In this document: one piece after another, positions 4,839 to 60,428 of the stretch
Numbering within the stretch: the stretch's first letter is position 1
How the letters are laid out: each line of letters begins with the position of its first letter
From: a bacterium
Lineage (GTDB): Bacteria > Patescibacteriota > Minisyncoccia > Phycocordibacterales > UBA5272
Assembly (NCBI GenBank): GCA_023267595.1
Contig: JAHFNB010000001.1
Location: forward strand, 94,590 to 158,589
DNA: 64,000 nucleotides
Reading direction: 5' to 3'
Program-made: the position numbers and the translations under genes
Notes under the pieces: model-generated
The model's database searches: none
Seen by the model: the letters and a program-made list of their open reading frames with translations, nothing else
What the model was told of the DNA's origin: nothing

Positions 4839-6038
4839 GTGTGTATGGATAAAGTTATTACAGATGAATCAAAAATTGAGGAACTACTTACTCGTGGTGT
4901 AGAAGAAGTTATTGTAAAAGATGAATTAAAACAGGCACTTTTGTCTGGGAAACAATTACGTATCAAATTAGGTGTAGACCCAACAGGAGGGAAAATACAC
5001 ATTGGTCGTGCAGTTCCTCTTCGTAAACTAAGAGAGTTTCAACGTCTCGGACACCAAATCGTTTTTATTGTTGGTGATTTTACTGCTCAAGTGGGGGATG
5101 CATCTGATAAAAGTGAAAAGCGCCCAATGCTTACACGGGCACAAATTGATGAAAATCTTAAAGATTATAAGAGTCAGATTTCTAAAATATTAGATATTAC
5201 AAAAACTGAGTTTGTTTATAATAATGATTGGCTCTCTAAATTAACTTTTGCAGAAATTGTGACACTAGCAGAGTGTTTTTCTGTACAACAAATGCTTGCG
5301 CGTCGTAATTTTAAAGAAAGATATGAACAAGGAAAAGAAATATCACTTCGTGAATTTTTATATCCAATAATGCAAGGATATGATTCTGTTGCGGTAAAAG
5401 CAGATGTAGAGATAGGTGGGTTTGATCAACTTTTTAATTTAAAAGCAGGAAGAATTATTCAGGAACATTATGGTATGCCGAAGCAAAGCATTGTAACTTT
5501 TACAATGCTTGAAGGAACAGATGGTAGAAAAATGTCTACATCTTGGGGGAATATCATTTCTATTGTTGATGAACCATTTGATATGTTTGGAAAAATAATG
5601 GCATTACATGATGATCTTATTATCAAATATTTTACATTGTGCACTGACGTTTCGCTAGAAGAGATAGAAGGATTTAAAAAAGAATTAGAAGGTGGAGCAA
5701 ATCCAAAAGATATAAAAATGAGATTAGCACTTGAAATTGTGACGCTGTACCATACAGAAAAAGACGCCTCTCTTGCAAAAAACTCTTGGATTGAAACTTT
5801 TTCAAAAGGTGGTGTCCCAGAAAAAGTGCCTGAAATAATAACTGAAGAAGGAAAAGAGATAGGAGATGTGGTTGTTGAAAATAATATTGTTGCATCAAAG
5901 ACTGCGTGGCGACGTCTAGTAGAGGATAAAGCAGTTGGAGACACAAATGGAAATATAGTTACTGATGTAAAAGAATTAGTTAAGAACGTGACTCTTAAAA
6001 TAGGAAAGAAGAGATTTGTAAAAATTATAGTGAAATAA
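4839..6038 (+). CDS. tyrS: Tyrosyl-tRNA synthetase
   Basis: GVDPTGGKIHIGRAVPLRKLREFQRLGHQIVFIVGDFTAQVGDAS aligns with the bacterial TyrRS HIGH region. YPIMQGYDS and KMSTS (KMSKS-like) are present. C-terminal S4-like segment ASKTAWRRLVEDKAV. Confidence 0.8.
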   Translation: MCMDKVITDESKIEELLTRGVEEVIVKDELKQALLSGKQLRIKLGVDPTGGKIHIGRAVPLRKLREFQRLGHQIVFIVGDFTAQVGDASDKSEKRPMLTRAQIDENLKDYKSQISKILDITKTEFVYNNDWLSKLTFAEIVTLAECFSVQQMLARRNFKERYEQGKEISLREFLYPIMQGYDSVAVKADVEIGGFDQLFNLKAGRIIQEHYGMPKQSIVTFTMLEGTDGRKMSTSWGNIISIVDEPFDMFGKIMALHDDLIIKYFTLCTDVSLEEIEGFKKELEGGANPKDIKMRLALEIVTLYHTEKDASLAKNSWIETFSKGGVPEKVPEIITEEGKEIGDVVVENNIVASKTAWRRLVEDKAVGDTNGNIVTDVKELVKNVTLKIGKKRFVKIIVK

Positions 6039-6076: not shown

Positions 6077-6250
6077 TTACCAATAACCTTCATCATTTGC
6101 TCTAAAGGCTAAATCTATCTCATCCTCCTCCTCATCTTCTCCCGGAAATAGTACAATTTCTTCCTCTTCAATTATATCTCCCTCAAATAAAGCCTCGAGA
6201 GCATCTGGATTTACTTCACCCACATTTTTTGGTTCTTCTTCAATAAGCAT
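6077..6250 (-). CDS. Small acidic hypothetical protein (57 aa), below ORF-track cutoff
   Basis: The reverse strand translates MLIEEEPKNVGEVNPDALEALFEGDIIEEEEIVLFPGEDEEEDEIDLAFRANDEGYW*. It lies immediately downstream of ruvC on the same strand. Confidence 0.3.
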   Translation of the reverse strand: MLIEEEPKNVGEVNPDALEALFEGDIIEEEEIVLFPGEDEEEDEIDLAFRANDEGYW

Positions 6251-6323: not shown

Positions 6324-6821
6324 CTAGTTTAAGGCTTTCATACCACGTGAAGCAGAGTGGGTAAGCGCGATTGCTATTGCATCTAGTTCATCATCAATTA
6401 AGCCGTTTTGTACCTGTTTTGTAAGTATTTTTGGAACCATATGTGCAATATCTTCCTTGGTTGCTTTACCATGACCCGCAATGGCCAGTTTTATTTGAGG
6501 TGGAGAATATTCATGAATAAAAATGCCATGTGATTGTGCAATGTAAATACAAACCCCACGGACTTCCGCGACAGTAATAATAGTTTTTTGATTAGTGGTA
6601 AAAAAAATTGTTTCAATTGCTAGTTCTTTTGGTTTGTACTTTGTAATAATTTTCTCTAGATGTTTACCTATTGTTTGTAAACGAACTTCGAAGGATTCTT
6701 TTTTTGATGTTTCAATGCAAGTAGAAAATACAAGAGTTTCTTTATCTCTCTCTTTATCCAAAACACATATCCCTAATCTTCCAAATCCAGGGTCTATACC
6801 TAAAATACGAACAGTGCTCAT
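6324..6821 (-). CDS. ruvC: Holliday junction resolvase RuvC
   Basis: MSTVRILGIDPGFGRLGICVLD..., acidic catalytic residues, about 165 aa. Confidence 0.9.
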   Translation of the reverse strand: MSTVRILGIDPGFGRLGICVLDKERDKETLVFSTCIETSKKESFEVRLQTIGKHLEKIITKYKPKELAIETIFFTTNQKTIITVAEVRGVCIYIAQSHGIFIHEYSPPQIKLAIAGHGKATKEDIAHMVPKILTKQVQNGLIDDELDAIAIALTHSASRGMKALN

Positions 6822-21654: not shown

Positions 21655-21921
21655 ATGGCTATAACACGAGGCGCAAAAAAAGCATTACGAGTAAGTGATC
21701 GCAGACGAGTTGTGAATGATGTTCGACGTCGTACACTTAAGGAAACTGTAAAAACAGTTCGCAAAGATATTGTTGCAAAAGATGTAAAAGCAATAAAAAC
21801 TGACCTCGCCCTTGCATATAAGGCACTTGATAAAGCAGCAAAAACCGGTGTCATCAAAAAGGGAACTGCTTCTCGAAGAAAAGCACGACTTGCCAAAGCA
21901 GTAGCAAAGATGGGCAAGTAA
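21655..21921 (+). CDS. rpsT: 30S ribosomal protein S20
   Basis: MAITRGAKKALRVSDRRRVVNDVRRRTLKETVK...AKAVAKMGK, a basic alpha-helical protein. Confidence 0.9.
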   Translation: MAITRGAKKALRVSDRRRVVNDVRRRTLKETVKTVRKDIVAKDVKAIKTDLALAYKALDKAAKTGVIKKGTASRRKARLAKAVAKMGK

Positions 21922-21928
21922 TATAATC

Positions 21929-21958
21929 AAAAACCACCTCTCGGTGGTTTTTGAATTT
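21929..21958. terminator. Rho-independent terminator after rpsT
   Basis: aaaccacc-tctc-ggtggttt followed by ttgaatttt. Confidence 0.65.
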
Positions 21959-22123
21959 TAGGCAGGAATTGGTTAAAAAATCAATTCATCGGCAGGATAT
22001 CTTCCTCAGTAATTATTTGTCGTCACAAATAATTCTTCGGACGGGCTCGTGGTTTTTCTTGCTAGAAAAACATCACTCCGCCTTTCGATTTCTGCATGAA
22101 AAGTGCGCAGGCACTTTTCTCTC

Positions 22124-22174
22124 GAGCACAAAATACAAAAGACCCCATTAAAGGGTCTTTTGTATTTTGTGCTC
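22124..22174. terminator. Very long perfect hairpin (22-bp stem) abutting and overlapping the 3' end of the minus-strand tRNA-Arg
   Basis: gagcacaaaatacaaaagaccc-cattaaa-gggtcttttgtattttgtgctc. The arms are exact reverse complements. Confidence 0.7.
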
Positions 22175-22241
22175 TCGGCAGGAATCGAACCTGCATCGCA
22201 AGTACCGCAAACTTGAATTCTATCCATTGAACTACGAGAGC
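22170..22241 (-). tRNA. tRNA-Arg (anticodon GCG)
   Basis: Reverse complement: GCTCTCG-TA-GTTC-AATGGATA-GAAT-T-CAAGT-TTGCGGT-ACTTG-CGAT-GCAGG-TTCGATT-CCTGC-CGAGAGC-A. The anticodon loop gives GCG with G37. Confidence 0.7.
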
Positions 22242-22344
22242 ATTGTGGATTTGATACTACACTATTTTTTATCTTTTTACCAGATTATTATTCATTTTTT
22301 AATATGAAATCGCCGTGCGGTTGCCCGCACGGCGATGTGAATCC

Positions 22345-26169: not shown

Positions 26170-26175
26170 CCAAAT

Positions 26176-26210
26176 ATAAAAATATACAGGTAAGACCTGT
26201 ATATTTTTAT
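26176..26210. terminator. Terminator hairpin after tRNA-Ser
   Basis: aaaaatatacagg-taaga-cctgtatattttt. Confidence 0.6.
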
Positions 26211-26236
26211 ATTTCATTTTCTGATAAACTAATTTC

Positions 26237-27969: not shown

Positions 27970-28797
27970 TTACTGTAGTGTAATTTTTTTCACATTAATT
28001 TTTTTACCAAAAAACATACTACCAAGAGTCTGAAAGTTTTCTGTTAAATCTGTAGAATAAAAGAGTAGACTGCTTTTCTTACTAAGAGTTTGTTCAAGAG
28101 ATGAGTGATTATGTAGATATAGTTTTAATTTTTTTGGAACGGTACGTGCCTCAGAAATAATTGCAACATCTTTTCCAAGAATCTTTTTTATTTTACTTTC
28201 TAATAGTCCATAATGAGTACATCCCAAAATAAGGGTGTCGATATGTTTCTTTTGTAGAGGTTGTAAATATTCTCGTAAAATAATATCAGTTGCTTTGTGG
28301 TATTTCTCTCCTGCTTCGACAATGGGTACAAGAAGGGGACATGCTTGTTCATAGACACGTATAGACGTATCTCGTTTGTGTATTTCTTTTGTAAATGCAC
28401 AGGAACGAACAGTACTTGCCGTTGCAATAATTCCTACTTTTTTATTTATTGTTTTCTCTAGAGCACTTTCTACTGCAGGAATAAGAACACCAAGAACTTT
28501 TTTATGTGGATATTTTTTTGGTATATAATTTTTTTGTATTTTACGTAAGGCTTCTGCAGAGGCGGTATTGCAAGCAATAATAATTAGTTCACAATTTTTT
28601 GCAAATAAAAAGTCTATTGCTTGCTTGGTGAACTCATAGATGATTTCTTGTGAACGTGTGCCATATGGAGTGCGTGCAGTATCACCGAGGTATAGGTAAT
28701 CGTACTCTCCATTTTCTTGTATGATGCCTCGTAGTATATCCAAGCCACCAAACCCAGAATCAAAGACTCCTATTTTTTTAGTTCTTTGGATCTTCAT
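27970..28797 (-). CDS. murI: Glutamate racemase
   Basis: IGVFDSGFGGLDIL, IIACNTASAEAL and LGCTHYGLL (catalytic Cys motifs). The internal ATG at 28797 is preferred. Confidence 0.85.
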   Translation of the reverse strand: MKIQRTKKIGVFDSGFGGLDILRGIIQENGEYDYLYLGDTARTPYGTRSQEIIYEFTKQAIDFLFAKNCELIIIACNTASAEALRKIQKNYIPKKYPHKKVLGVLIPAVESALEKTINKKVGIIATASTVRSCAFTKEIHKRDTSIRVYEQACPLLVPIVEAGEKYHKATDIILREYLQPLQKKHIDTLILGCTHYGLLESKIKKILGKDVAIISEARTVPKKLKLYLHNHSSLEQTLSKKSSLLFYSTDLTENFQTLGSMFFGKKINVKKITLQ

Positions 28798-28895
28798 ATG
28801 TATGATAATAGCATGTCGATTGGCAGGAAGTTCGGTCACAAAGTCTATTTTGGTTACAAAATATAAGACTTCGCGACCCCTATTCGATTCCTGAC

Positions 28896-28917
28896 AAAAG
28901 CCAAGCAGTTGGCTTTT
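28896..28917. terminator. Hairpin terminator downstream of minus-strand tRNA-Arg(TCT)
   Basis: aaaagccaa-gcag-ttggctttt. Confidence 0.55.
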
Positions 28918-28947
28918 TCCTCAATCACAAATGCTTCGCTTATTTTG

Positions 28948-29019
28948 TGCCCTCGGCAGGAATCGAACCTGCAATAACGGCTTAGAAGTCCGCAGTTATA
29001 TCCATTTAACTACAAGGGC
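28948..29019 (-). tRNA. tRNA-Arg (anticodon TCT)
   Basis: Reverse complement: GCCCTTG-TA-GTTA-AATGGATA-TAAC-T-GCGGA-CTTCTAA-GCCGT-TATT-GCAGG-TTCGATT-CCTGC-CGAGGGC-A. The T-arm is identical to that of tRNA-Arg(GCG). One A31/G39 mismatch. Confidence 0.7.
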
Positions 29020-29078
29020 ATGAATATAGAACATACTAGCAAAAAAATGAAAAATATTGTAGTATTTACCTTACATTC

Positions 29079-29151
29079 GGGCGATTAGCTCAGTTGGTAG
29101 AGCAGCGCATTTACACTGCGAAGGTCGGGGGTTCGAATCCCTCATCGCCCA
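29079..29151 (+). tRNA. tRNA-Val (anticodon TAC)
   Basis: GGGCGAT-TA-GCTC-AGTTGGTA-GAGC-A-GCGCA-TTTACAC-TGCGA-AGGTC-GGGGG-TTCGAAT-CCCTC-ATCGCCC-A. Confidence 0.8.
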
Positions 29152-29198
29152 CAGATATAGAAAAATTCGCGAAAGTTTTTTGTTACTATACATATTTT

Positions 29199-29927
29199 AT
29201 GAAACTTCCAATTCTTTTTGAAAATGTACATGCAGTAGCAGTAGATAAACCTGTGGGTATTATGGTGCATCCTGATGAACGAGGTGATGAGTACACTATC
29301 TCAGATTGGATGAAAGAACATTATGAAGTTAAAGGTGTAGGGGACGTTGGTCGTGAAGGAATAGTGCATAGACTAGATAGAAATACTACAGGAGTACTTA
29401 TGCTTGCAAAAGATAAGATCGCATACACAACATTTAAAAAACAATTTGCAGATCACACAACACGAAAAGTATATCGTGCAATCGTTGAAGGAAATATTAA
29501 ACATGATACAGGTATGATCTCATTACCTATTGCACGTGCGCGTAGTGATTTTCGTAAACGTACAGTAGTAGATATGTTTTCAAAAGATAATCGTGGTGAA
29601 GAACGAGAAGCCATAACACGTTATAAAGTCCTTGCACGATCAACGACAGACGATGGGAAAAATTATTCGTATGTAGAAGTATATCCATTAACTGGTCGCA
29701 CACATCAAATACGTGCGCATTTTAGAGGGATACGACATCCAATTGTTGGTGATGATTTATATGGTTCAGTATCTGGTCGTAATGTTGCTCCACGTTCTAT
29801 GCTTCATGCGTATTCTCTTACTATACAAATACCTAAAGAAAATGAAGGAAAAGAAGAAAAAACTATCGTCTCAGATATTCCAAAGGACATGCAAGAGTCC
29901 CTTGCGAAACTCGGTTTTTCATGTTAA
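29199..29927 (+). CDS. RluA-family pseudouridine synthase
   Basis: HRLDRNTTGVLMLAKDK catalytic motif. The track ORF start at 29094 overlaps tRNA-Val, so ATG 29199 (MKLPILFENVHAVAVDKPVG) is used. Confidence 0.8.
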   Translation: MKLPILFENVHAVAVDKPVGIMVHPDERGDEYTISDWMKEHYEVKGVGDVGREGIVHRLDRNTTGVLMLAKDKIAYTTFKKQFADHTTRKVYRAIVEGNIKHDTGMISLPIARARSDFRKRTVVDMFSKDNRGEEREAITRYKVLARSTTDDGKNYSYVEVYPLTGRTHQIRAHFRGIRHPIVGDDLYGSVSGRNVAPRSMLHAYSLTIQIPKENEGKEEKTIVSDIPKDMQESLAKLGFSC

Positions 29928-29933
29928 GATTCC

Positions 29934-30368
29934 ATGACTATGAAGACAACTATTAAGTTAACTCCAGTTGATATTGCGTCTCGAAAAGCCCTTGATTTTT
30001 CAACAGGCGATGTTGTGTGCGTGTGGAACAAGATCAAAGAATCTGATGGAAAAACTCGTCTTCAAGCATTTGAAGGAATGGTACTTGCCCGTAAGCACGG
30101 TACAGAAATAGGGGCTACGTTTACTGTTCGTAAAGTTGCCTCAGGTGTAGGTGTAGAACGCGTATTTCCACTTTTTTCAGTTACTATTGATAAAATTGAA
30201 CTCGTTCGTCGTGCTCGTACTCGTCGCAGTAAACTTTACTATGTGCGTGATAAGGCGCTTCGTGATGTGCGTCGTAAGTTAAAGGCAGATACTCGTGTTG
30301 TAAAGAAAGGAAGTACAACAACTATGGAAGCAGTTGTAGAAGAAGAACCAAGTGAAGTTGTAGCATAA
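29934..30368 (+). CDS. rplS: 50S ribosomal protein L19
   Basis: DVVCVWNKIKESDGKTRLQAFEGMVLARKHGTEIGATFTVRKVASGVGVERVFPLFS. C-terminal extension. Confidence 0.9.
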   Translation: MTMKTTIKLTPVDIASRKALDFSTGDVVCVWNKIKESDGKTRLQAFEGMVLARKHGTEIGATFTVRKVASGVGVERVFPLFSVTIDKIELVRRARTRRSKLYYVRDKALRDVRRKLKADTRVVKKGSTTTMEAVVEEEPSEVVA

Positions 30369-30370
30369 TT

Positions 30371-30400
30371 AAAATCTCGACCAACGGTCGAGATTTTAAT
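30371..30400. terminator. Rho-independent terminator after rplS
   Basis: aaaatctcgacc-aac-ggtcgagatttt. Confidence 0.7.
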
Positions 30401-30449
30401 TTACCTACTTTCATGTTAGTATTTCATTACTTCTCGAAAGAGAAAATAT

Positions 30450-30511
30450 GCCCAGGTGGCGAAATTGGCAAAGAAAATATTTGCGTACGTCGTACGTCTA
30501 CCAATTTCGCC
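30450..30511 (+). pseudogene. tRNA-Leu-derived fragment: direct copy of tRNA nt 1-19 plus inverted copy of nt 10-29, forming an 11-bp hairpin
   Basis: 30450-30468 gcccaggtggcgaaattgg is identical to the start of tRNA-Leu at 30559. 30492-30511 is the reverse complement of ggcgaaattggtagacgtac. Confidence 0.6.
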
Positions 30512-30558
30512 GTTAAGGTGTAATATGTTTAGAGTTCAAGAAAGATGGTGTGTAATAT

Positions 30559-30642
30559 GCCCAGGTGGCGAAATTGGTAGACGTACTACCTTGAGGTGGT
30601 AGCGCTGGCAACAGCATGGAGGTTCAAGTCCTCTCCTGGGCA
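30559..30642 (+). tRNA. tRNA-Leu (anticodon GAG), long variable arm
   Basis: GCCCAGG/CCTGGGC acceptor. CTACC-TTGAGGT-GGTAG anticodon arm. 16-nt variable arm. GGAGG-TTCAAGT-CCTCT T-arm. Confidence 0.85.
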
Positions 30643-30694
30643 CATACATAAATTAAAAACAGACATAATTATGTCTGTTTTTAATTTATGTATG
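30643..30694. repeat. 52-nt perfect palindrome (26-bp arms), putative terminator immediately after tRNA-Leu
   Basis: catacataaattaaaaacagacataa|ttatgtctgtttttaatttatgtatg. The arms are exact reverse complements. Confidence 0.8.
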
Positions 30695-30757
30695 TCTTCA
30701 AAAAAAGTACGATATATGGTAGAGTAAAAGCCTAATTCAGAAATGAATTATGAATAT

Positions 30758-30833
30758 GGTGCCTATAGTGTAATGGTTAGCACGCGGGCTTGTGGAGCCC
30801 TCAGTTCGAGTTCGAATCTCGATAGGCACACCA
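30758..30833 (+). tRNA. tRNA-His (anticodon GTG) with encoded G-1 and CCA
   Basis: G-GTGCCTA...CGGGC-TTGTGGA-GCCCT...TCGAG-TTCGAAT-CTCGA-TAGGCAC-A-CCA. Confidence 0.8.
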
Positions 30834-30883
30834 AACGAAAGTTGGATAAGGCATATGAATTTTCAAACTGATATACTACATGT

Positions 30884-31297
30884 ATGGAAGTAGGAACTTT
30901 TGCATTTATTCAAGATCAAGAAAAAAGAATATTGATGGTCAAGGATGTGACACGTCAGCAACTTTGGACATTACCAGGTGGGGGAGTGGATTTTAAAGAA
31001 TTAGTGCCTGATGCACTTATAAGAGAAGTAAAAGAAGAAACATCTTTAGATATTAACGTCGGTGGATTATTAGGAATATTTAGTCAACAGAAAACTCCAG
31101 GAATTGTTATTTTGTTTTCTGTAAAAGTTATAGGAGGAATACTTTCACCAAATGAGACAGAAACTAGTACGTGTGAATATTTTACAATAGAACAATTAAG
31201 TAAGATGAAGGAAGAAATAAAACCAGCGCAGTGGAGCATGATACATCAAGTTAATTCCAGTAAAGTATTTCCGATTTTTAATAGTTTCTCAGTTTAA
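30884..31297 (+). CDS. NUDIX hydrolase
   Basis: Nudix box GGGVDFKELVPDALIREVKEETSL. Confidence 0.75.
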   Translation: MEVGTFAFIQDQEKRILMVKDVTRQQLWTLPGGGVDFKELVPDALIREVKEETSLDINVGGLLGIFSQQKTPGIVILFSVKVIGGILSPNETETSTCEYFTIEQLSKMKEEIKPAQWSMIHQVNSSKVFPIFNSFSV

Positions 31298-48462: not shown

Positions 48463-51400
48463 ATGTCAGAGTCTAAGAATGTACCAAAGAGTATCAATGA
48501 AAAAGAGTTAGAAACACTTGCTTTTTGGCAGGAACATACAATATTTGAAAAGTCAGTAGAGACTCCTGCAGGTGATGTACCAAAAGGTAGTTTTTCTTTT
48601 TATGATGGTCCTCCATTTGCAACAGGGCTTCCTCATCATGGAACACTTATGGCAGGTACGGTAAAGGATATTATTCCGCGATATCAAACAATGAAAGGAA
48701 ATAGTGTTCGTCGTAAGTGGGGGTGGGATTGTCATGGTCTTCCAATAGAAAATCTAATTGAGAAGAAATTAGGATTAAAGAGTAAAAAAGATATTGAAGA
48801 CTTGGGTATTGCTACGTTTAATAAACATGCACAAGACAGTGTTCTTCAGTATGAATCAGAATGGAAAGAAATAATTCCTCGATCTGGAAGATTTGTCGAT
48901 ATGGATCATGATTATAAAACAATGGATGCAACATATACCGAGAGTGTATGGTGGGCATGGAAAACATTATACGAAAAAGGACTTGCCTACGAAGGATATA
49001 AAATGATGCATATTTGTCCACGTTGTGAGACCACACTTGCACAATCAGAAGTAGGAATGAACTACGAAGATGTTACTGATTTATCAGTAACTGCAAAGTT
49101 TGAACTTACTGATGAACCACAGACATTTGTTCTTGCATGGACAACAACACCGTGGACTCTTCCGGGGAATACGGCACTTGCTCTTTCACAAGATGCAGAG
49201 TACCTAAAAATAAGAGTAGGTGGAATGGAAGGAATGTATATTCTCGCGAAAGAAAGAATTGCTGATGTTCTTCAAGAAAAAAATTATGAAGTTATAGATA
49301 CGTTTAAGGGTTCGAAACTTATTGGTAAGTCATATAAACCAGTATTTCCATATTTTATTAATACAGAGATTGATAATAAAGAAAATATTTGGAAAATATG
49401 GCATGCAGATTTTATTACCCTAGATACAGGGACAGGTATTGCACACGAGGCACCCGCATTTGGTGCAGATGACATGGAACTCGCAAAGCAACATTCTATT
49501 CCTGTGATCAAGCATGTGCTTATGGATGGAACATTTACACACGATGTTACTGATTTTGTTGGCATGAAGGTAAAAAAAGTCGGAGATACGCAATCTGCTG
49601 ATATTGAAATCATTAAATATCTCGCACACAGTGGATCCTTATTTGAAAAACATAAAATAGTTCATTCCTATCCACTGTGTTGGCGATGTAAAACACCACT
49701 TCTTAATTATGCAACGTCGAGTTGGTTCATTGATGTGCCAAAAATGAAACCAACATTATTATCTGAGAATCAAAAAATAGGTTGGACTCCAGAACATATT
49801 CGTGATGGTAGATTTGGTAAATGGCTAGAAGGGGCACGTGAATGGGCAGTATCTCGTACTCGTTACTGGGGAGCGCCACTTCCTGTATGGAAAAATAAAG
49901 ATGGTGAATTGCTCGTTATCGGTTCTCTTAAAGAACTTGCAGAAAAAAATAAACAAAAAGTAAAGAATATATACTTTGTAATGCGTCATGGAGAAGCAGA
50001 GAGTAATGTAAAAGGTATTATTGATAGTAGTGGAGACACGACTAATGGGCTTACAGAAAAAGGCAAAGAACAAGTACGTACAGAAATAAAAAATCTTTCT
50101 CAGAAAATTGATCTTATTATCTCGTCTCCATTTTTACGTGCACAAGAAACAGCAGAGATTGTACGACAAGAATTGGGAGATGTTCAAATTATAGTTGATG
50201 AGAGATTGAAAGAGTTTCAATTAGGTATTTTCGACAAAAAACCAATAGAAGAATATTATAAAGTATTTTCCTCAATCACCTTAGATACGGTAATTACAGG
50301 AGGTGAAACTCATCGTGATATGTTCACACGTGCAATGTCAGTATGGAATGATTTGGAAAAGAAATATGAAGGAAAAAATATTCTGATAGTAACACATGGT
50401 GGTCCAGCATGGATGTTAACTGTCGGTACATCACTGATCACTGATGAAGCAATTAATGAATCAATGAAACATCTTGGTACTGGAAATTGGGTTCCAAATG
50501 CAAAGATTATCCCTCTAGAACCCCTCATTGTTCCACGAGATGAGACTGGAAACATAAATCTTCATCGTCCATACATTGATGAAGTAGAACTAGAAGTTGA
50601 TGGTGTTACATATACAAGAATTCCTGATGTGTTTGATTGTTGGTATGAGTCAGGTGCTATGCCATTTGCATCTCTTCATTATCCATTTGAAAATAAAGAT
50701 ATTTTCGATAAAAATTATCCAGCAGATTTTATTGCGGAAAGTATGGATCAAACACGAGGATGGTTTTATTCACTTATAAACTTAGGGGTAGGGCTATTTG
50801 ATAAAGCACCGTACAAACACGTTATTGTAAATGGGCTTATCAATGCAGCAGATGGGAAAAAGATTAGTAAAAGTTTAAATAACTATACTGATCCATTAGA
50901 ATTAATTGCAAAGTATGGAGCAGATGCATTTCGTCTTTACCTCATGTCTAGTTCTGTAGTAAAAGGAGAAAGTGTTAATTTTAAAGATGAGGATCTCGAT
51001 GGTGTTTACAAACGTTGTATTCTTAGACTAGAGAATGTTATGTCTCTCTACGAAATGAATAAACCAGAATCTGTGATACCACTATCTTCTTCAGATCATA
51101 TTCTTGATATGTGGATTATAAGTAGGCTTCATGAAGTTATTCAAGAGGCAACGCATGGATTTGATACGTATATGCTCGATGATGCAGTACGACCGTTTGA
51201 TCAGTTTATTGATGATGTTTCTGTTTGGTATATACGACGTTCACGTGAACGATTAAAAGGGGACTCTGGAGAAGAAGATCAAAGGATGGCCTACGGGACT
51301 CTCACTTACATATTACAAACGTTTGCAAAGACTATTGCACCAGTTATGCCATTTATTGCAGAGCGTCTTTACAAGCAATCAGGAGGAGAAAAAGAGTCTG

Positions 51401-51903
51401 TTCATCTCGAAAAATGGCCAAGTATAGGAGAGATTCATGAAGGTATACTTGCGGAAATGAAAATGGTTCGTGATGTAGTTTCACTTGGACTCATGAAGCG
51501 AACAGAAGTAAAGATAAATGTGAAACAACCGCTACTTTCTATTATGCTTAAACAAGATATTAATCCTAAGTATTTTGACGTTATCAAAGATGAATTGAAT
51601 GTAAAAAATGTTTTTATTCACGCCTCACAATCAGATGAAGTTAAACTTGATACCACAATAACTGAAGCATTACAAAAAGAGGGAGATATTCGCAAACTTA
51701 TTCGTGCTATACAAGATGCACGAAAAGAAAAAGGATTATTGCCACAAGATAGTATTGTGTTAACCTTATCTTCTGTTAGTGGTCTTGGGAATATTTCATT
51801 ACTTATTGCTACATGTAAAATCTCTGAAACAAGAGAAGATGCAAGTATTAAAGATAATTCGGTAGAATTATCTTCTGGAATTATATATTTTTCTATTGTC
51901 TAA
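48463..51903 (+). CDS. ileS: Isoleucyl-tRNA synthetase with an embedded histidine-phosphatase (PGAM-like) domain
   Basis: IleRS signatures PFATGLPHHGT, WTTTPWTLPGN and KISKS. The residue 502-687 segment carries RHGEAESN, SPFLRAQET and IVTHGG phosphatase motifs, in-frame. Confidence 0.85.
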   Translation: MSESKNVPKSINEKELETLAFWQEHTIFEKSVETPAGDVPKGSFSFYDGPPFATGLPHHGTLMAGTVKDIIPRYQTMKGNSVRRKWGWDCHGLPIENLIEKKLGLKSKKDIEDLGIATFNKHAQDSVLQYESEWKEIIPRSGRFVDMDHDYKTMDATYTESVWWAWKTLYEKGLAYEGYKMMHICPRCETTLAQSEVGMNYEDVTDLSVTAKFELTDEPQTFVLAWTTTPWTLPGNTALALSQDAEYLKIRVGGMEGMYILAKERIADVLQEKNYEVIDTFKGSKLIGKSYKPVFPYFINTEIDNKENIWKIWHADFITLDTGTGIAHEAPAFGADDMELAKQHSIPVIKHVLMDGTFTHDVTDFVGMKVKKVGDTQSADIEIIKYLAHSGSLFEKHKIVHSYPLCWRCKTPLLNYATSSWFIDVPKMKPTLLSENQKIGWTPEHIRDGRFGKWLEGAREWAVSRTRYWGAPLPVWKNKDGELLVIGSLKELAEKNKQKVKNIYFVMRHGEAESNVKGIIDSSGDTTNGLTEKGKEQVRTEIKNLSQKIDLIISSPFLRAQETAEIVRQELGDVQIIVDERLKEFQLGIFDKKPIEEYYKVFSSITLDTVITGGETHRDMFTRAMSVWNDLEKKYEGKNILIVTHGGPAWMLTVGTSLITDEAINESMKHLGTGNWVPNAKIIPLEPLIVPRDETGNINLHRPYIDEVELEVDGVTYTRIPDVFDCWYESGAMPFASLHYPFENKDIFDKNYPADFIAESMDQTRGWFYSLINLGVGLFDKAPYKHVIVNGLINAADGKKISKSLNNYTDPLELIAKYGADAFRLYLMSSSVVKGESVNFKDEDLDGVYKRCILRLENVMSLYEMNKPESVIPLSSSDHILDMWIISRLHEVIQEATHGFDTYMLDDAVRPFDQFIDDVSVWYIRRSRERLKGDSGEEDQRMAYGTLTYILQTFAKTIAPVMPFIAERLYKQSGGEKESVHLEKWPSIGEIHEGILAEMKMVRDVVSLGLMKRTEVKINVKQPLLSIMLKQDINPKYFDVIKDELNVKNVFIHASQSDEVKLDTTITEALQKEGDIRKLIRAIQDARKEKGLLPQDSIVLTLSSVSGLGNISLLIATCKISETREDASIKDNSVELSSGIIYFSIV

Positions 51904-59470: not shown

Positions 59471-59510
59471 AAAAAAGCATGGGTTTGCCTTTGGCAAACC
59501 CATGCTTTTT
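59471..59510. terminator. Rho-independent terminator (18-bp stem)
   Basis: aaaaagcatgggtttgcc-ttt-ggcaaacccatgctttttt. Confidence 0.7.
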
Positions 59511-59551
59511 TGTTAGTATGGTATTTATTATTTACTAACTAGGTAAAAACT

Positions 59552-60169: not shown

Positions 60170-60206
60170 CTTTACTTTTTTCATACCAAGAATATAATAA
60201 TGGTAG

Positions 60207-60411
60207 GGTGCTTAGGTATTTTTCTGGATAATACATCTTCGGGTAATGGAATATTGCTATGTGGCCGAGGTCATATACGTTTCCTACCCACCTGACATAA
60301 AACATCAGGAAGATGTCCTGAGCCCCTAGAAAAAAATCCCTCCCAAGAGGGATTTTTTTCTAGGGGCTAGAGGACAAGGAAGAGAAAATCCGCCAAAATG
60401 GCGGATTTTCT
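60207..60411 (+). ncRNA. Candidate structured small RNA / complex terminator region (unclassified)
   Basis: TATAAT-like -10 at about 60195. ggtagg...cctacc long-range pairing. acatc-aggaa-gatgt hairpin. 24-bp-stem hairpin 60321-60368. 11-bp-stem hairpin 60384-60410. No CDS. Confidence 0.3.
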
Positions 60412-60428
60412 CATGATATACTTTCTAT

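Follow-up and report, generated by a model that had tools for sequence, protein, structure and literature searches.

The perfect palindrome that begins at the last base of tRNA-Leu(GAG) is probably a symmetric, bidirectional-type Rho-independent terminator; its sequence suggests that it ends a single-gene tRNA-Leu unit and separates it from the promoter of the neighbouring tRNA-His gene. The palindrome itself is ordinary, as one member of a lineage-wide class of terminators. Behind many other terminators of this kind in the clade lies a tRNA-like element, apparently undescribed, whose existence is well supported and whose link to the tRNA-Leu palindrome is speculative.

The palindrome lies in a 64-kb stretch of bacterial chromosome (the window; ~36% G+C) with seven scattered tRNA genes and a housekeeping content that includes PBP1A, PilB, DNA polymerase I (Pol I), MurE, ArgRS, IleRS and ribosomal protein L19. 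It comes from an 88-kb metagenome contig (ERZ27279977). The nearest L19 proteins, 85–93% identical, are labelled with names such as Candidatus Taylorbacteria, Paceibacterota and Pacebacteria, which places the source among the uncultured bacteria of the Candidate Phyla Radiation (CPR, or Patescibacteria), in class Paceibacteria taken broadly. A Pfam scan of six ORFs around the tRNA-Leu locus identified a pseudouridine synthase, L19, a NUDIX protein, TspO, a GH114 hydrolase and a LUD-domain protein, and the gene order of the locus matches that of relatives. At the gathering threshold, Rfam returned the seven tRNAs of the window and nothing else. A phage origin was rejected: megablast of the 28–34 kb region against phages matched tRNA-Val only, at 83–85%, and the gene content is that of a bacterial chromosome. 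As a separate observation, the isoleucyl-tRNA synthetase (48463–51903, + strand, 1146 aa) carries an inserted domain of ~150 aa (residues ~501–653) resembling histidine-phosphatase/phosphoglycerate-mutase-type families, an unusual fusion.

Structure and proposed function of the tRNA-Leu palindrome

The features of the tRNA-Leu locus are as follows.

30414–30422, + strand: putative extended −10 promoter TGTTAGTAT of the tRNA-Leu unit (TGnTAGTAT conserved in 13 relatives aligned by eye)
30559–30642, + strand: tRNA-Leu(GAG), found by ARAGORN and by Rfam (tRNA, 50.4 bits), with 7 of 7 acceptor pairs
30642–30695, + strand: perfect palindrome, proposed symmetric intrinsic terminator of tRNA-Leu (sequence, fold, pattern scan and a second assembly)
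30660–30677, + strand: core terminator hairpin CAGACAT-AATT-ATGTCTG, read from the sequence, its layout shared by orthologous trailers
30678–30689, + strand: T-rich tract TTTTTAATTTAT, 9 T of 12, directly 3' of the core stem; putative release zone for + strand transcripts
30717–30725, + strand: putative tRNA-His promoter TGGTAGAGT, a conserved block 22 nt past the palindrome

The palindrome comprises 54 nt in two 27-bp arms (30642–30668 and 30669–30695) that are strictly Watson–Crick paired, with neither mismatch nor spacer. An earlier sequence-only reading had described a 52-nt perfect palindrome with 26-bp arms that starts one nucleotide after the discriminator base of tRNA-Leu. Its perfection and its contact with the tRNA 3' end are borne out, but 30643–30694 are only the inner 52 nt: the first base of the palindrome is the discriminator itself, A30642, which pairs with T30695, placing the palindrome end at +53 from the tRNA. 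At its centre, the core hairpin has a 7-bp stem and a 4-nt loop and sits between A5 (30655–30659) and T5 (30678–30682), so that TTTTT follows ATGTCTG immediately. Six further paired bases lie beyond TTTTTAATTTAT, and pairing runs 13 nt past T5. The A-rich tract at 30648–30659 mirrors the T-rich tract and would play the same role for − strand transcripts.

The 7-bp core extends to a stem of 25–27 bp, and the hairpin is predicted to fold with −31.1 kcal/mol on the + strand and −31.7 kcal/mol on the − strand (z = −11.7); both strands thus fold alike, with an upstream A-tract mirroring the T-tract, as in bidirectional terminators. In a joint fold of −67 kcal/mol, the tRNA cloverleaf and the hairpin form next to each other and do not compete. 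In a pattern scan that returned 11 terminator-like sites, against 4.4 ± 2.1 in shuffles, the palindrome was the top site. Counting against a terminator is the low G:C content of the core stem (3 of 7 pairs): the core alone is weak, and this A+T-rich stem is weaker than those of textbook terminators.

An assembly or sequencing artefact, such as a fold-back chimera, is an extremely improbable source of the symmetry. Perfect palindromes can arise in de Bruijn-graph metagenome assemblies, and a related contig, L004, starts with adapter sequence. However, the palindrome recurs unchanged, and away from contig ends, in assemblies of two samples (ERZ27279977 and ERZ27279937, the latter L004), and the independence of the second assembly rules out a fold-back; moreover, the two flanks differ and are syntenic with relatives, and analogous hairpins occupy the same place in 14 other genomes. 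The adapter sequence of L004 is an observation in its own right: positions 1–85 consist of poly-T and Illumina adapter that run into the rplS terminator hairpin, so that this public assembly of the same strain contains an adapter chimera.

A-rich tracts immediately 5' of terminator hairpins have been described as the mark of bidirectional terminators, and the upstream A-tract may pair with the U-tract (PMC12207403). Together with established knowledge of intrinsic termination, this link is the basis on which we assign a terminator role to the T-rich tract. RNA polymerase would start at the conserved TGTTAGTAT (30414–30422) and transcribe tRNA-Leu; the core hairpin CAGACAU-AAUU-AUGUCUG would form right behind the polymerase, the upstream A-rich arm would zip onto the emerging U-rich tract (UUUUUAAUUUAU), and the weak rU:dA hybrid would free the transcript at ~30680–30690. 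Since the DNA is perfectly palindromic, the same signal is present on the opposite strand, and antisense transcription arriving from the tRNA-His side would halt before it reached the tRNA-Leu gene. The locus has no convergent gene or mapped antisense promoter that would make such bidirectionality necessary. The released precursor would carry a trailer of ~40 nt, fully paired and starting at the discriminator. The bases after A30642 are CAT and CCA is not encoded; maturation would therefore require an RNase Z-like endonuclease to remove the trailer behind A73, with CCA added later. From these features we infer termination, its release point, the processing and the promoters. To our knowledge, transcription signals in CPR are essentially unstudied, and our literature searches found no studies of CPR terminators.

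Like the bidirectional intrinsic terminators mapped by Term-seq in Firmicutes and E. coli, the palindrome consists of a stem-loop followed by a T-run, with an A-run mirrored upstream; it lies just past a gene 3' end, and its structure is kept while its sequence turns over. Unlike them, it has unusually long and perfect arms (27 bp), pairing that continues 13 nt past T5, an A+T-rich core and no spacer to the tRNA discriminator, and it is described here from sequence alone. The tRNA-Leu trailer likewise resembles the RNase Z-processed trailers of CCA-less bacterial tRNAs: it lacks CCA, starts right after the discriminator and would require an endonucleolytic cut after N73. It differs from these in being paired throughout as a single duplex, with the discriminator itself in the first pair. 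The locus thereby adds a CPR example of very long, perfectly symmetric intrinsic terminators, and indicates that a terminator can start at the discriminator of a tRNA without encoded CCA, which constrains 3' maturation in reduced genomes.

The length of the arms is a different matter. The distal 13 nt of pairing past T5 would be absent from the terminated RNA, so simple termination does not explain 27-bp arms, and the earlier remark that the stem is longer than intrinsic termination needs applies to the outermost 6–8 pairs. Possible sources of these pairs are selection for stability in an A+T-rich core (5 of the 27 pairs are G:C), symmetry on the two strands, or perfecting of the palindrome at the DNA level. 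Quasipalindrome correction, a form of template-switch mutagenesis, perfects and extends hairpins. This process would fit perfect, strictly Watson–Crick arms well beyond functional need, and also the palindromes of relatives that extend into conserved tRNA sequence, which would be the template.

A conserved block, (T)GGTAGAGTAAAAGCC, precedes tRNA-His in L137, L131 and L139 (L numbers denote related loci), and the TGnTAGTAT motif of the tRNA-Leu unit recurs upstream of tRNA-Arg(GCG); with conserved promoter-like blocks before both tRNA-Leu and tRNA-His, the palindrome lies exactly between two transcription units. More generally, an extended −10-like sequence, TGnTAG(T/A)(A/G)T, recurs 12–50 nt upstream of tRNA genes in the window and in relatives (for example at 22258–22265, − strand) and is a candidate for the consensus promoter of the lineage.

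These blocks bear on an alternative in which the hairpin serves mainly in RNA processing or stability, as an RNase III-type substrate or as a block to 3'-exonucleases that defines the tRNA 3' end, while transcription continues into tRNA-His. The hairpin does begin exactly at the discriminator, the two tRNA genes lie on the same strand only 116 nt apart, and the duplex reaches the classic size of RNase III substrates, which are perfect duplexes of at least 22 bp. However, the conserved promoter-like block before tRNA-His would serve that gene separately, hairpins of this design also stand behind protein-coding genes, and a T-run behind the core stem, unneeded for processing, is nevertheless present here and in every orthologue. 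We consider a role mainly in processing improbable.

The interval between the tRNA-Leu promoter and the tRNA shows a further peculiarity. An insertion of ~110 nt (30446–30558) separates the conserved promoter/leader from the tRNA and contains a direct copy of tRNA-Leu nt 1–19, plus 4 upstream bases, at 30450–30468, and an inverted copy of tRNA nt 9–28 (the D-arm region) at 30492–30511, which gives an 11-bp hairpin (GGCGAAATTGG/CCAATTTCGCC). L132 and L142 share this arrangement, and the copies in L132 carry the tRNA variants of their own genome, which points to concerted evolution or functional pairing. The insertion looks like a 5' counterpart of the 3' trailer described below.

A class of long perfect hairpins at gene ends

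The palindrome is one of 15 perfect hairpins in the window with a stem of at least 12 bp, where dinucleotide-preserving shuffles of the window gave 0.17 per shuffle and a longest stem of 12 bp; chance does not account for the excess. Four of the 15 have stems of at least 20 bp. Those discussed here, in addition to the palindrome, are the following.

22124–22174, − strand: 22-bp perfect hairpin overlapping the last 5 nt of tRNA-Arg(GCG) (22170–22241), −39.2 kcal/mol
26172–26214, + strand: 20-bp perfect hairpin of the same class, starting at the last A of the encoded CCA of tRNA-Ser(TGA), −21.1 kcal/mol
30367–30401, + strand: rplS terminator of the same class, with a 16-bp perfect stem overlapping the stop codon; the hairpin is kept in orthologues
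59471–59511: 19-bp perfect hairpin following the S18 gene
60321–60368: 22-bp perfect hairpin with 5 further pairs beyond a bulge (extended form 60315–60375, −46 kcal/mol)
60382–60412: perfect hairpin, tandem partner of the hairpin at 60321

Three of these had been named in the sequence-only reading. The 22-bp stem at 22124 is as described there, while the other two exist with other lengths, the 24-bp stem at 60321 proving to be 22 bp perfect plus 5 pairs after a bulge, and the 18-bp stem at 59471 proving to be 19 bp.

On the first gene map, 12 of the 15 started between −5 and +34 nt from the 3' end of a gene or tRNA; the count rose to 13 once the S18 gene, which encodes 67 aa, was missing from the first map and ends 8 nt before hairpin 59471, had been added. 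The zone covers 5.9% of the window as a whole and 29% of the intergenic sequence in it. Hairpins were found in 13 of 43 tandem or convergent intergenic regions versus none of 10 divergent ones; the palindrome, like most of its class, is thus located at a 3' end and not at a 5' end. The arms, read manually, share a design: in 13 of the 15, a run of at least four A in the 5' arm is mirrored by at least four T in the 3' arm, with G:C pairs in the core. The proposal of a class of extended palindromic terminators, made earlier from the letters of the window, is therefore upheld for the 64-kb window and its relatives by the 13 of 15 at 3' ends, the absence from 10 divergent regions and the structure kept in orthologues. 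For annotation, long perfect hairpins with A and T runs can serve as marks of transcription-unit ends in this lineage. Separately, the two remaining hairpins of the 15, at 60321 and 60382, are both strong and stand in tandem 150–210 nt after ndk, with no convincing ORF between (60170–60412); this interval may hold a small RNA or peptide gene with its own terminator.

Conservation in related genomes leads to the same conclusion at tRNA-Leu. We collected 14 non-redundant genomes with tRNA-Leu(GAG) through a scan with the tRNA 3' half, a longer tRNA pattern and L19 homologues. All 14 have a hairpin and T-run at −9 to +6 nt from the tRNA-Leu end, 11 of them perfect over at least 11 bp and three imperfect, and their core sequences are unrelated: among orthologues the structure is kept and the sequence varies. 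The rplS terminator shows compensatory changes in orthologues, for example CTCGACC/GGTCGAG to CTCAACC/GGTTGAG in L118. Among the closest L19 homologues (91–93% identity: L133, L164 and L165), we did not find a slightly diverged copy of the palindrome in a near relative; these loci have no intact tRNA-Leu after rplS, or their sequence ends early. In L164 (1997–2331), the sequence after rplS consists of a tRNA-Leu fragment covering no more than the D-loop to the anticodon stem, with an ORF behind it; the tRNA gene may be interrupted or intron-bearing, or it may have decayed.

Turning to DNA-level functions, the palindrome might serve as a recombination or cruciform target or, at a tRNA hotspot, as an integrase att site; it might also belong to a REP/MITE-like repeat family. 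It is a perfect DNA palindrome, it adjoins a tRNA 3' end, the classic target of integration, and the tRNA flanks of the clade are insertion-prone. Against this, the arm is unique in the window and has a single 14-mer in common with other loci, no tRNA 3'-end repeat flanks any island here, none of the six Pfam-scanned flanking ORFs is an integrase, and the gene order is as in relatives. A DNA-level site is thus very improbable at tRNA-Leu, and the recombination or cruciform site at an integration hotspot proposed in the earlier reading finds here neither a copy of the tRNA 3' end nor a recombinase nor a repeated arm. Three specific candidates were rejected. For a repeat family or MITE, the arm occurs once in the window even with 3 mismatches allowed, and the fetched loci share the one 14-mer only. 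REP/BIME, Correia and RPE families are likewise intergenic, hairpin-forming and often near gene ends, but each window hairpin, unlike their members, has its own sequence. For an integrase att site, the 230 nt downstream contain none of the 9-mers from the tRNA 3' end, direct or inverted, and the six flanking ORFs are housekeeping genes and include no recombinase; att sites in the T-loop or 3' end of tRNAs share the position of the palindrome, and small inserts in relatives are bounded by direct repeats from T-loop to discriminator, whereas the window tRNA-Leu has no tRNA-end repeat, island or integrase. For a known RNA family, permissive Rfam scans of 28700–30900 gave only meaningless microRNA hairpin matches.

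A tRNA-like element behind tRNA terminators in the clade

The 3' flanks of tRNA genes in the clade repeatedly carry a tRNA-like element. Among 65 non-redundant clade tRNA loci, 37 show a perfect hairpin (10 bp or more) whose start is no further than 25 nt from the tRNA end; at 20 of the 65, the palindrome starts inside the tRNA (−1 to −14) and has a stem of 22–32 bp. In a control set covering other phyla (mostly Gammaproteobacteria), hairpin starts range from +3 to +38 and no hairpin reaches into the tRNA; this set was drawn from a genome collection with the last 22 nt of the tRNA as the pattern, which was too general and returned mostly Gammaproteobacteria. In the clade, the acceptor 3' strand is repeated in inverted form right behind the terminator and in register with it, which accounts for the overlap. 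The T-arm, too, recurs as an inverted copy 30–130 nt downstream of 35 of 65 clade tRNAs, 6 of 38 other-CPR tRNAs (one of the six, L085, being probably a neighbouring tRNA-Leu gene and not the element) and 1 of 125 non-CPR tRNAs, against a hand-calculated chance expectation of ~0.01 per tRNA.

The element is 100–150 nt long and lies directly behind the terminator in about half of the clade tRNA genes. Its parts follow in a fixed order: the inverted acceptor copy, RAG (two or three bases), a 9-bp stem capped by a CUGC loop, CGU, the T-stem and T-loop of the tRNA copied in inverted form over 11 nt, a conserved core, and a direct copy of the 3' side of the T-arm, which in several cases reaches the discriminator and is then followed by a second terminator. 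The core reads AUAGGGGUCGCGA...UUGUGACC (also written AUAGGGGUCGCGA...GUGACC) or is a longer variant with an extra arm, and it contains an invariant G:U pair. The arms always match the local upstream tRNA, and sub-variants of the core are common to different tRNAs and genomes. The CUGC hairpin has 25 different stems in 27 instances, with double compensatory changes at 9 of 9 pairs; out of 243 pairs, 239 are Watson–Crick, one is G:U and three are mismatches.

Folded from the acceptor-like strand to the direct copy, the element is tRNA-like. Its closing stem is identical to the tRNA acceptor stem, the CUGC arm takes the place of both the D arm and the anticodon arm, and the core occupies the T-loop position on a T-like stem that has arms inserted in it. 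The sense strand folds 5–10 kcal/mol better than the antisense strand in six of seven folded instances, with no difference for the window copy at tRNA-Arg(GCG). In relatives, the element behind the terminator is apparently transcribed in the same sense as the tRNA, which would need read-through and counts against the terminator assignment; these hairpins may be leaky or may also act in processing.

A covariance model (R1) was built on 11 copies and used to search 425 kb of CPR loci with E at most 0.01. It gave 37 non-redundant hits, of which 28 lie 10–54 nt downstream of a same-strand tRNA; the others are three second tandem copies, five hits at contig or locus edges and one at a decayed tRNA-Ser locus. 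A hit in L037 overlaps the last 2 nt of a same-strand tRNA-Leu(CAG). The element was also seen in L118, L126, L128–L132, L134, L137, L139, L140, L142, L144, L053 and L082. The window contains two copies, the first of them forming, with the terminator at 22124–22174, a module of terminator and tRNA-like trailer.

~21989–22128, − strand: copy after tRNA-Arg(GCG) (22170–22241), behind the terminator at 22124–22174; R1 hit at 22024–22128
28822–28927, − strand: copy after tRNA-Arg(TCT) (28948–29019); R1 hit

These were the only two R1 hits in the window; neither R1 nor a heuristic scan found an element at the window tRNA-Leu. Presence of the element is polymorphic, and at tRNA-Leu it is absent from the window, L137 and L094. 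Searches for known counterparts gave no match. For the element, Rfam returned nothing, permissive scans of 28700–30900 and 21900–22260 hitting only meaningless microRNA hairpin families; blastn against phages found no match, and pattern hits in IMG/VR were unrelated coding sequences of high G+C. Literature searches on Parcubacteria tRNA inverted repeats and Patescibacteria tRNA-like RNAs yielded nothing relevant. Nine related loci contain, according to Rfam, tRNAs and one LOOT RNA only; the latter (RF03000, 68.6 bits) is at 302–424 (− strand) of L094, a related Nomurabacteria locus.

The element may have arisen by duplication and inversion at hairpins; alternatively, it may be a tRNA-like RNA co-transcribed with the tRNA, or a small insertion element specialised for the ends of tRNA genes. 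Quasipalindrome correction does not explain its conserved hairpin and core. Any mobility or function is speculative; if the element proved to be mobile or to act as an RNA, it would add a new component to the tRNA gene biology of CPR. If the element is mobile and targets tRNA ends behind terminator palindromes, the junction 30695/30696 would be an unoccupied target.

The tRNA-Leu palindrome can be read in this light, as the 'solo' or 'empty-site' form of a clade-specific trailer in which a terminator palindrome is followed by the tRNA-like element. Its long arms would then result from a DNA-level process, possibly template switching or the copying of a fold-back at the hairpin, or else the loss of an element once inserted. 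Several observations suggest such an origin: the 22–32 bp palindromes that enter the tRNA (20 of 65) and the inverted copies of the own T-arm (35 of 65) in the clade, the end of the palindrome at +53, which equals the palindrome end in element-bearing loci, the strictly Watson–Crick arms, and an arm 14-mer (AAATTAAAAACAGA) in common with the trailer of tRNA-Val in L131. An intermediate may be seen at tRNA-Val in L132, which has the palindrome and the inverted acceptor copy without the element. However, the covariance model is negative at tRNA-Leu, no copy of the tRNA 3' end, inverted or direct, lies downstream, the palindrome halts at the discriminator and does not enter the acceptor stem, and protein-coding genes also have equally long perfect hairpins, as at 60321. 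We regard this origin as unlikely; it is compatible with terminator function and not opposed to it. Stated for CPR as a whole, the palindrome would be the bare form of an undescribed tRNA 3'-end arrangement, with a symmetric terminator abutting or invading the tRNA and a tRNA-like 'shadow' behind it, a generalization that we put forward tentatively, as possible but doubtful. The symmetric terminator remains our preferred assignment for the palindrome.

At the level of the clade, the earlier idea of an integration hotspot, which fails at tRNA-Leu, retains some substance: behind such terminators, some genomes have and others lack a tRNA-like element flanked by direct repeats of the tRNA 3' end. 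A different type of small insertion was noted in the 3' flanks of tRNA-Ser(TGA) in L134 (tRNA at 5710–5797, − strand), L139 (tRNA at 6500–6587, − strand) and L140; direct repeats containing the final 6 nt of the tRNA (CCTCCG|CA...) delimit the insertion. At 6130–6470 of L140, the body of tRNA-Ser is missing, and only a trailer element remains together with the direct repeat of the tRNA 3' end.
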